Part shown: piece by piece, positions 29,068 to 30,415 of the stretch
How the letters are laid out: each line of letters opens with the position of its first letter
Numbering within the stretch: position 1 is the first letter of the stretch
From: a virus
Taxonomy: Duplodnaviria; Caudoviricetes
DNA length: 64,000 nt
Direction: 5' to 3' (one strand)
IMG/VR virus record: IMGVR_UViG_3300042888_002988
Span: 128,001-192,000 of that record
Made by a program: the position numbers and the translations under genes
The notes under the pieces: model-generated
Databases searched by the model: none
The model's input: the letters and a program-made list of their open reading frames with translations, nothing else
What the model was told of the DNA's origin: nothing

Positions 29068-29499
29068 GGGGGCGTTCTGGTTTCGACATGATTGTTGAAG
29101 GCATTACCCGCACGTGGTGGTTGATCGGCAGGCCACCTTAAAAGCCGTTCAAAACAAACAAATGCCAACTCCAACGAGTTCGCGATGACCTCCGCCGAAG
29201 CAGACGCTTTGCTCGCCAATGGTATCGCCGCCCCAACGGGCGTCGAAGCCGGCGCGCTCGCAGCTGCCTAAGCAGACTGTCATCCCACGTGGGTTCCGCC
29301 GGTATACCGGGGCCTGCGCAGGACAACCAATGTATTCCTTAGAGCCAGGTAACACTGGCGGGCAGCCCGGGAAGACGGGATAGGTCTCAAGCCCCGAATG
29401 GTGCGATAGGGTGTCTCGGCCCGATAACTGAGACTAAACGTGTAGAAAGTATGCTTGACGTAATTGTGGACAGGGGTTCGACTCCCCTCGCCTCCACCA
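29068..29499 (+). ncRNA. ssrA: tmRNA
   Basis: 5' GGGGGCG pairs with 3' CGCCTCC-ACCA (G3.U70, A73); T-loop GGTTCGACTCC; tag ORF 29164-29271 ANSNEFAMTSAEADALLANGIAAPTGVEAGALAAA* after ACAAAT. Confidence 0.97.
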
Positions 29500-29507
29500 T
29501 TTCCCAC

Positions 29508-29586
29508 GGCAGGGTAGCTCAGTCTGGTCCAGAGCAACGGGCTCATAATCCGTAGGTCGGTGGTTCGAATCCACCCCCTGCCACCA
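29508..29586 (+). tRNA. tRNA-CAT (probably elongator Met)
   Basis: Cloverleaf GGCAGGG/CCCTGCC, anticodon loop CTCATAA, TTCGAAT T-loop, encoded CCA; lacks the C1:A72 mismatch of fMet; Ile2 not excluded. Confidence 0.9.
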
Positions 29587-29588
29587 AT

Positions 29589-29661
29589 GCCCGCTCAGTA
29601 TCCCCTGCGCCAGTTTACCCCACGGGGTCTAGCAACGCAGGGGGCAACTGAGCGGGCGCCA
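29589..29661 (+). ncRNA. CCA-terminated long hairpin RNA of unknown class
   Basis: 11-bp perfect closing stem GCCCGCTCAGT/ACTGAGCGGGC plus GCCA; 9-bp inner stem; C(CACG)G loop. Confidence 0.5.
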
Positions 29662-29780
29662 TTTTCCGGACCCCCTTACCACGGGTCCCCTCCACAAACG
29701 TCACAGCTCCGCCTGGCATGAAGCCGCGGACTGAGACCCGCTTGGGAGCGGGGCTGTGACACAAACATCTTCCCGTATGG

Positions 29781-29873
29781 GAGCCAGGGCTGGTTGCCTA
29801 TCCGATTATCCGCCGCCGTGGGACGCCACGACGGACATCGGTGGGGTAGGGTTCGAGTCCCTCCCTTGGTTCA
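29781..29873 (+). ncRNA. tRNA-like RNA with acceptor stem and T-arm but no anticodon arm
   Basis: GAGCCAG/TTGGTTC-A acceptor (G3.U70, A73), GGGTTCGAGTCCC T-arm, long central hairpin. Confidence 0.6.
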
Positions 29874-29878
29874 CGATT

Positions 29879-29958
29879 TCGCAGGTAGCTCAGACTGGTA
29901 GAGCATCGGTGCCAACACTTACCGAGGGTCGTAGGTTCAAATCCTACCCTGTGATCCA
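29879..29958 (+). tRNA. Non-canonical tRNA with a 10-nt anticodon loop
   Basis: TCGCAGG/CCTGTGA acceptor, D-arm GCTC/GAGC, stem TCGGT/ACCGA with loop GCCAACACTT, T-arm GTAGG-TTCAAAT-CCTAC, T-CCA end. Confidence 0.85.
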
Positions 29959-29968
29959 ATTTCCCCAC

Positions 29969-30415
29969 GTCCCGGACAAACCCTTCCCATTGCCGAACCC
30001 TGGATGGCCTTCTACGGAGGGCGAGAGGGTGTAGGTCGGCGCTCAGGCGTCGAGAGGGGACCGGGAGGTTACGGGACGGTCGTCGCCCGCGCTCGCAGTG
30101 CACTGCGAGCACACGCTGAACGTAAGCGTCCCACAGCGCGGCGGCGACCGACACTTTCTCGAAAAGCCCGTAGGCTCTGAGGGCAACCGCAAACCAGTGC
30201 CTTGGAATGCAACCGCCCGACAGGTGGCCCAAGAGAAAAGCCGGCGGGGTAGCGCTACCCCGCCGGCACCCACCGCTCGGATCGCGACATTTATCAACAT
30301 GGTGTCGCGATCCGAGCGGTGGTTCGGTGTTCATAGCTCCGGAGTATTTCCGGAAAGATCGATCGCTCGATCTGCGGCGGAAGACGGCGGGGGCCGAGGT
30401 CCCCGCCGTCTTCCG
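29969..30415 (+). ncRNA. Highly structured non-coding region (candidate large ncRNA)
   Basis: C(TACG)G hairpin 30007-30022; palindromes 30091-30110 and 30240-30267; inverted repeats 30270-30322 and 30378-30415. Confidence 0.55.

Follow-up and report, generated by a model that had tools for sequence, protein, structure and literature searches.

The window analysed here is a stretch of 64,000 nucleotides, corresponding to bases 128001-192000 of a virus record of 200,158 nt with 60.6% G+C. Its RNA island is flanked by a conserved gene for a 210-aa protein and by the convergent gene for the terminase large subunit, and runs from leader hairpins through an ORF of 179 aa to a string of RNA genes (Table 1). 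These include a tmRNA, a tRNA-CAU and two tRNA look-alikes, which we call E3 and tX. We also noticed that the N-terminal ~120 residues of the terminase end in His-Asn-Ser and look like an intein fragment, and that one related locus (L005) carries a LAGLIDADG gene directly upstream of its terminase gene.

Table 1. Features of the RNA island and its flanks, with positions in the window.
Feature	Positions	Strand	Remarks
Conserved gene, 210 aa	27698-28330		
Phage promoter	28338-28370	+	motif GCAA-N16-TCATAAT-N-TT; drives the island unit
Structured 5' leader	28375-28485	+	two hairpins; fold z -6.4 on the + strand
179-aa ORF	28515-29054	+	Lys/Ala-rich tail; directly upstream of tmRNA; homologues 55-85% identical
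tmRNA	29068-29499	+	one-piece; G3.U70; encoded CCA; RF00023, 127 bits
tmRNA tag frame	29164-29271	+	35 codons ending ALAAA-stop
tRNA-CAU	29508-29586	+	canonical; elongator Met type by sequence; 71 bits
E1	29589-29661	+	strain-specific candidate; long hairpin with a G-CCA end, T and D loops lacking; z -6.4
Small hairpin	29668-29688	+	loop contains UACCA; similar loop downstream of tmRNA in L115, L111 and L007 (post hoc)
E2	29700-29760	+	three-way junction on a 13-bp stem; z -4.4
E3	29781-29873	+	tRNA look-alike; 9-bp acceptor-like stem, 4-bp T-stem, canonical T-loop, GACG-capped long hairpin for anticodon arm, no encoded CCA
tX	29879-29958	+	tRNA look-alike; complete tRNA body, 10-nt non-canonical anticodon loop (N-CCA-N6), U73, encoded CCA; 52 bits
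E4	29963-30073	+	multi-stem RNA, A-rich bulge, two-hairpin junction; z -2.1 on +, +1.2 on -
E5	30077-30153	+	conserved three-way-junction RNA; not in Rfam
E6	30157-30236	+	weakly folded linker, conservation not evident; z -0.6; 84% identity in L115
E7	30240-30267	+	perfect 28-nt palindrome hairpin; L111: equal length and flanks, different sequence
E8	30270-30322	+	long hairpin, 20-bp perfect arms; sequence variable among relatives
3' module	30321-30425	+	single-stranded GUUCAU, variable hairpin, CGCUCG-loop hairpin, YGAG-tetraloop hairpin, U-rich end (terminator)
Terminase large subunit	31137-33113	-	PHROG 2 match

The promoter motif occurs nine times in the genome of the island and eight times in a relative (G002). 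The next copy downstream lies at 30432-30464, and there is no motif between 28370 and 30432. At the other end, a terminator-type hairpin followed by TTTACC ends at ~30425 and resembles the other terminators of the phage; no terminator-type site was found from the tmRNA up to there. With these signals at its two borders and none in between, the island is to all appearances a single phage transcription unit of ~2 kb with one promoter and one terminator. The first-pass annotation, which began the island at the tmRNA, thus missed a start lying ~700 nt earlier, at the promoter. Its proposal of one precursor handled like a tRNA operon fits the single promoter, the single terminator and the tRNA-type leaders and trailers, processing itself being the presumed step. 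The recurrent spacers that it had seen after CCA ends are real as well: they are pyrimidine-rich trailers like those of the phage's other tRNA cluster. This second cluster (G000:C1:28635-29478, minus strand) encodes Cys, Asn, Ser, Tyr and three Leu tRNAs, one of the latter with an AAG anticodon.

The region 29587-30425 folds at z = -10.4 against shuffles, most single elements also lying well below shuffles, and the pairing of the 5' leader is kept despite base changes in L110 and L115. The 179-aa ORF precedes the tmRNA also in L007, L110, L111, L115 and L117, and had no match in Pfam or PHROG. An antisense ORF of 178 codons (29798-30334) was discarded for want of conservation: relatives share no more than its first 3-4 codons and have short or unrelated frames there. 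Incidentally, the promoter motif nearly always has an ATG within 3-4 nt downstream, so that most such genes look leaderless; the copy of the island, where the RNA leader comes first, is the single exception.

Syntenic loci were gathered via the terminase and the 179-aa ORF, the informative ones being L115 (~90% identical), L111, L007 and, in part, L110 and L117; this gave only 2-7 sequences per element and, for each tRNA look-alike, only two independent sequences. In a tree of the 210-aa protein, the tmRNA carriers clustered with weak support (80/78), apart from relatives without a tmRNA in the slot. The cassette is accessory, since a complete 184-kb relative had no tmRNA and no tRNA anywhere, and the island thereby appears as an accessory ncRNA operon in a variable slot adjoining the terminase gene. 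BLAST against GenBank phages returned only generic matches to tRNAs and to the tmRNA T-arm, and in IMG/VR the scans with patterns of E3, the tmRNA pseudoknot and the 3' module either came back empty or hit unrelated contigs by chance. Distant relatives also had a tmRNA near the terminase gene (L081 7265-7708, minus strand; L083 4184-4648, minus strand; the end of L032), with no tRNA look-alikes after it in L081 and L032. In a 212-kb phage whose terminase is 30% identical (L010 1111-1278, minus strand), a tmRNA with a tag of ~22 codons stood ahead of two tRNA bodies that have 8-nt loops and lack G3.U70. The tmRNA of an AT-rich 184-kb phage whose relatedness to the island phage is not established (L012 2918-3362) had a 34-codon tag with an acidic-DALL stretch.

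The tmRNA, already named as such by the first-pass annotation, matched RF00023 far above the gathering cut-off of 47 bits and over model positions 1-374; it is a new member of this known family. It has an alanine acceptor stem (G3.U70, A73 and CCA) and a T-arm, and its copies in relatives are 62-95% identical. Its tag frame lies after pseudoknot 1, has a hydrophobic end and is conserved as a peptide: the L117 tag differs by six synonymous versus three non-synonymous codon changes, and the tags of L111 and L007, of 31 and 32 codons, share the core EADA-LL. In contrast with these long frames, 31 tmRNAs of the host phylum, which were the best-scoring matches and hence lean canonical, had tags of 8-16 residues with a median of 9, against 35 codons in the island. 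ARAGORN placed the tag wrongly, the real frame being that of Table 1, and its second call, a "permuted tmRNA" at 29407-29850, was an artefact. The phage tmRNA thus looks like a working one with a long, selected tag, for which trans-translation is predicted. Because no SmpB gene was found in the phage genome, it would use the SmpB of the host. As for the identity of this host, the pseudoknot-1 pattern had a sole match among 185,579 species genomes, the chromosomal tmRNA of an uncultured Verrucomicrobiales bacterium; going by this one match, the phage probably infects Verrucomicrobia.

The neighbouring tRNA-CAU is the one normal tRNA of the island, as had been suggested. It forms a cloverleaf with a 7-nt loop CUCAUAA including U33 and purine 37, ends in CCA, and has the features of a canonical tRNA. 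We assign it to elongator Met because 1:72 is paired, the D stem is of the elongator type and C4:G69 and C29:G41, which we take to be the tRNA-Ile pairs, are absent; this tRNA-Met is a new member of a known family. In L115 the same place is held by a different, initiator-like tRNA-CAU, 62% identical to that of the island, and L024, L026 and L031 also carry an initiator-type tRNA-CAU close to the terminase. The support of rescue and translation that the first-pass annotation had proposed for the RNA set is sound for the tmRNA and the tRNA-Met, and nothing specific speaks for the decoy action it had added.

The look-alike tX does not meet the description of a canonical decoding tRNA, having a 10-nt loop and no U33 in register; ARAGORN returned it as tRNA-???, with a loop that it could not assign. 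It is identical in L115. Its orthologue in L111 has the same loop length, CCA at loop positions 2-4 and the same distance from E5, tX lying 115-120 nt before E5 in the three of three phages that have it. Between the island and L111, 8 of 21 pairs had both partners changed, and 41 of 42 pair cells were still paired; the D-stem, the GG of the D-loop, the T-loop and all four helices were kept. At the same time, 3:70 went from G.U to C-G, base 73 from U to A, pair 1:72 was changed, becoming a U1.U72 mismatch, and the encoded CCA was lost. Since the helices and the D and T features persist with compensatory pairs while 3:70, 1:72, base 73 and CCA differ, the shape of tX is apparently selected and its amino-acid identity is not. 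In IMG/VR, tRNA bodies with a 10-nt loop were found in nine unrelated contigs, none with the tX loop. Judged from these two sequences, an independent origin of the island and L111 copies from two different tRNAs is less likely, this spacing occurring in only nine IMG/VR contigs. A pairing between the tX loop and E4 was rejected: although it ranked first among the local duplexes of each lineage, its place differed and its lead over the runner-up was slight.

The short D region of E3 carries GG, and its tRNA-like fold lies 3.5 kcal/mol above the free minimum in the island and equals the minimum in L115. The two copies of E3 are 75% identical, whereas their neighbours are 95-100% identical; they differ by five compensatory and two one-sided pair changes, and 50 of 52 cells are paired. 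Both have G3.U70 in an ungapped register and neither encodes CCA, and the L115 copy shows G1.U72, A2xC71 and C73. E3 is absent from L111 and L007, and RF00023 gave no match at E3 even at E 10. Because of the compensatory changes in relatives (5 pairs in E3 and 8 in tX), E3 and tX are, judged by their sequences, two maintained non-decoding tRNA shapes. The first-pass annotation had counted at least three tRNA mimics and had named a lack of covariation in relatives among the things that would refute its idea. It withstands this, as two abnormal RNAs, tX and E3, do covary; the third, the hairpin at 29589, lacks both a T and a D loop, and the closest relative does without it, so that two mimics rather than three are supported. 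G3.U70 is, as it had also pointed out, literally present in the tmRNA, E3 and tX, but the alanine identity drawn from it fails as a shared trait. It is doubtful for E3, whose stem has 9 bp and which does not encode CCA. tX combines G3.U70 with U1-A72, C2-G71 and U73, and falls outside tRNA-Ala because of this U73 in the island and of C3:G70 in the L111 orthologue, which has A73 and no CCA.

The other RNAs differ widely in conservation. E1 is absent from L115, L111 and L007, with no copy in the other genomes searched; where it would lie, L115 has a different hairpin and an ORF of 87 aa. E2 is 95% identical in L115, and L111 and L007 hold only positional analogues. E4 has a comparable fold at the same position in L111 and L007, without a reliable sequence alignment across lineages by MAFFT. 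E5 has a fixed geometry, and in 12 of its 25 pairs both bases change among four phages; it was found only in tmRNA-bearing relatives. When 151 genomes of the likely host order were searched with its model, few candidates being scored in each, no copy was convincing, and a single match of 30.7 bits was dropped, as it lay inside apparent coding DNA. A long hairpin occupies the position of E8 also in L001, L007, L111, L116 and L031. The 3' module is present in seven related phage lineages, some without a tmRNA (relatives L001/L003, L007, L031, L042, L111 and L116), and is older than the cassette. Its model recovered L031, a sequence outside the model, at 33 bits and E 1e-4, and L042 at E 0.8 only, an assignment that rests on inspection. 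The last hairpin keeps 11 of 11 pairs in five sequences, with an invariant G.U and four compensatory positions, or six if L003 is counted, where indels shift the register. Neither E2, E4, E5 and the 3' module nor their L111 copies matched Rfam at gathering score; the newness of E5 and the 3' module is judged against Rfam. E5 and the 3' module, unnamed in the first-pass annotation, are the best-conserved parts of the island. Collectively, these data depict the island as a real ncRNA operon, evidently under selection.

Several smaller observations concern the same RNAs. A hairpin with a UACCA loop follows the tmRNA in four of four cassette-bearing phages (L115 5383-5403; L111 6003-6019; L007 ~60 nt after the tmRNA), and CCA is found also in the tX loop and the E4 linker. 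In the 3' module, an invariant GUUCAU(AGC) (30326-30337) is complementary to the GCU-AUG-A/G starts directly after the phage promoter. Genes next to a promoter start with AUG-R-R-Y in 7/8 cases, versus 27/92 for other long ORFs of the phage genome (G000), a post hoc count, and the flanks do not covary in relatives. The same GUUCAU also resembles an initiator anticodon loop (U-CAU-A). Outside the window, at G000:C1:54170-54272, lies another tRNA-shaped RNA, with a branched domain for the anticodon arm; its homologue in L007 (~8095-8200, minus strand) sits in the terminase slot with its own promoter.

What might the two look-alikes do? The most likely reading, to which we give a probability of roughly 0.5, is that they act by shape alone, as processing marks for the RNase P and RNase E of the host. 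The single promoter would yield a ~2-kb transcript, which host tRNA-processing enzymes would cut, RNase E at U-rich spacers and RNase P at tRNA elbows, with 3' trimming. This would release a working tmRNA and tRNA-Met supporting translation during infection, together with several stable structured RNAs of unassigned function (E2, E4-E5 and the 3' module). E3 and tX would keep the acceptor/T-arm/elbow surface read by the processing enzymes, with no fixed amino-acid identity and no decoding; they would mark cut sites and end as stable uncharged by-products. We put this reading first because the features conserved in tX and E3 are presumably those that RNase P reads, and because both sit between uncatalogued RNAs. 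YrlA provides a precedent for a tRNA-mimic ncRNA that RNase P cuts (PMC4201824), and in L115 the stems and T-loop of E3 are kept and its terminal pairs and base 73 degrade. Against it, L007 has E4-E5 and the 3' module without tX or E3, so the marks would not be essential. A pure mark, moreover, would have no need of a 10-nt loop containing CCA, which both tX lineages nonetheless retain, and the divergence of E3, faster than that of its neighbours, looks more like an arms race.

Such divergence recalls a tentative and clearly less probable alternative, in which E3 and tX accumulate as decoys that bind host tRNA-targeting defence enzymes or RelA via elbow and acceptor arm, and which survive without a normal anticodon loop. 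Both share a transcript with the tmRNA and the tRNA-CAU, and their slot is a hot spot of swaps, the tRNA-CAU and E1 having been replaced and E3 standing at 75%. Initiator-type tRNA-CAU near the terminase in the three relatives named above, and the two 8-nt-loop tRNAs right after the tmRNA of the distant family member L010, could be read in the same way, and phage tRNAs have been proposed to counter anticodon nucleases (PMC10264068). However, the counter-defence described there uses functional, cleavage-resistant tRNAs and not non-decoding decoys. The mimics conserve no identity element of any one host tRNA, and no target is identifiable from sequence. The first-pass annotation had favoured decoys or rescue RNAs against nucleases, toxins or stringent-response sensing; nothing specific came to support decoy action, and no target or partner gene was found in the genome (no SmpB, Ro60 or RtcB).

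A still more doubtful reading would join the parts into an all-RNA toolkit of undescribed families in this phage subclade. Shape-only tRNA decoys would titrate host tRNA-targeting defences and a long-tag tmRNA would route stalled products unlike that of the host. A conserved three-way-junction RNA would travel with the tmRNA, and the invariant GUUCAU of a 3' small RNA would pair with the AUG start codons of leaderless mRNAs that the phage itself makes next to its promoters.

It is improbable that E3 is an analogue of the tRNA-like domain (TLD) of tmRNA, binding SmpB or AlaRS and tuning rescue toward the phage tmRNA. Its stemless or mini D region with GG, the long helix for an anticodon arm, the T-arm and G3.U70 in both copies would suit such a role, and a TLD-only tmRNA exists in mycobacteriophage DS6A (PMC4131195). 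Yet the lack of any RF00023 match goes with a 9-bp stem, no GGAC linker and no CCA; the L115 copy has a broken pair 2:71 and C73, and E3 is missing from the tmRNA-bearing L111 and L007. We equally disfavour decaying tRNA genes carried along with the tmRNA. Odd-loop tRNAs are indeed sporadic in unrelated phages (9 contigs), the L111 tX has its U1.U72 mismatch and no CCA, and E1 is strain-specific, but 41/42 tX cells and 50/52 E3 cells stay paired despite heavy sequence change, and loop length and position of tX are alike in two lineages. Least probable is a DNA element formed by the E7-E8 palindromes and the 3' module, such as an origin or a packaging site, since the perfect inverted repeats, their retention in relatives without a tmRNA and the nearby terminase gene are outweighed by the invariant G.U pair, the YGAG tetraloop and the plus-strand bias of E4 and the 3' module, which point to RNA.

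Phage tmRNAs and phage tRNA clusters are already known; maintained non-decoding tRNA shapes together with new structured RNA families in one transcript have received little description. Should the look-alikes be processing marks, phages would use the tRNA shape as punctuation, borrowing host RNase P to free their own small RNAs. As decoys, they would form a counter-defence made of RNA only and different from the replacement of cut tRNAs. Either way, the operon supplies defined RNAs backed by covariation (E3, tX, E5 and the 3' module) that are directly testable in vitro and in laboratory strains.

The tmRNA itself resembles the one-piece tmRNAs of known phages (SsrA, RF00023), found in the mycobacteriophage Bxz1 group and Bacillus phage G (PMC4131195) and in huge phages (PMC7162821), in its complete tRNA-like domain, G3.U70 and CCA, as well as in the resume codon, a tag ending ALAAA and the lack of a phage SmpB. 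It differs from them in sitting within a string of uncatalogued RNAs. E3 and tX resemble allo-tRNAs and YrlA as non-decoding mimics in polycistrons, but belong to neither of these; tX is no tRNA-Ala either, and E3 is a doubtful one. The irregular tRNA and allo-tRNA polycistrons of Mukai et al. (PMC5389517) contain co-transcribed tRNA shapes, some with a long acceptor stem and a 4-bp T-stem and some unused in translation. Allo-tRNAs, however, have a 12-bp 8/4 or 9/3 branch, a D-stem tetraloop, an anticodon arm and a long V-arm, whereas E3 is 9/4 without anticodon or V-arm, for which we rejected it as an allo-tRNA, and tX combines a 7/5 branch with its 10-nt loop. Y RNAs of the YrlA type (RF02553, PMC4201824) are likewise non-decoding tRNA mimics with D and T arms, found in phages and cleavable by RNase P. 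The island RNAs differ in lacking the permuted T-then-D order within one RNA, and a Ro60/Rsr gene (PF05731) is absent from the genome. The RF02553 model scored 27.3 bits against the 69 required, over the T-arm of E3 and the D-arm of tX, that is, over adjacent tRNA halves, and the same artefact recurred across the tmRNA and tRNA-Met at 17 bits. The TLD-only tmRNA of DS6A (PMC4131195) shares with E3 a tRNA top half and a long helix for the anticodon arm; E3 differs by lacking the tmRNA sequence signature, by standing beside a full tmRNA and by a 9-bp rather than 7-bp acceptor, and was rejected as such an RNA.

The tRNA clusters of T4 and T5 contain stable non-tRNA RNAs, such as the species 1 and 2 RNAs of T4, which are cut from the cluster transcript by host enzymes. 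The island RNAs are likened to these, with no sequence relation expected, as structured RNAs of unassigned function from a phage tRNA-cluster transcript; they differ in coming with a tmRNA and with non-decoding tRNA shapes.
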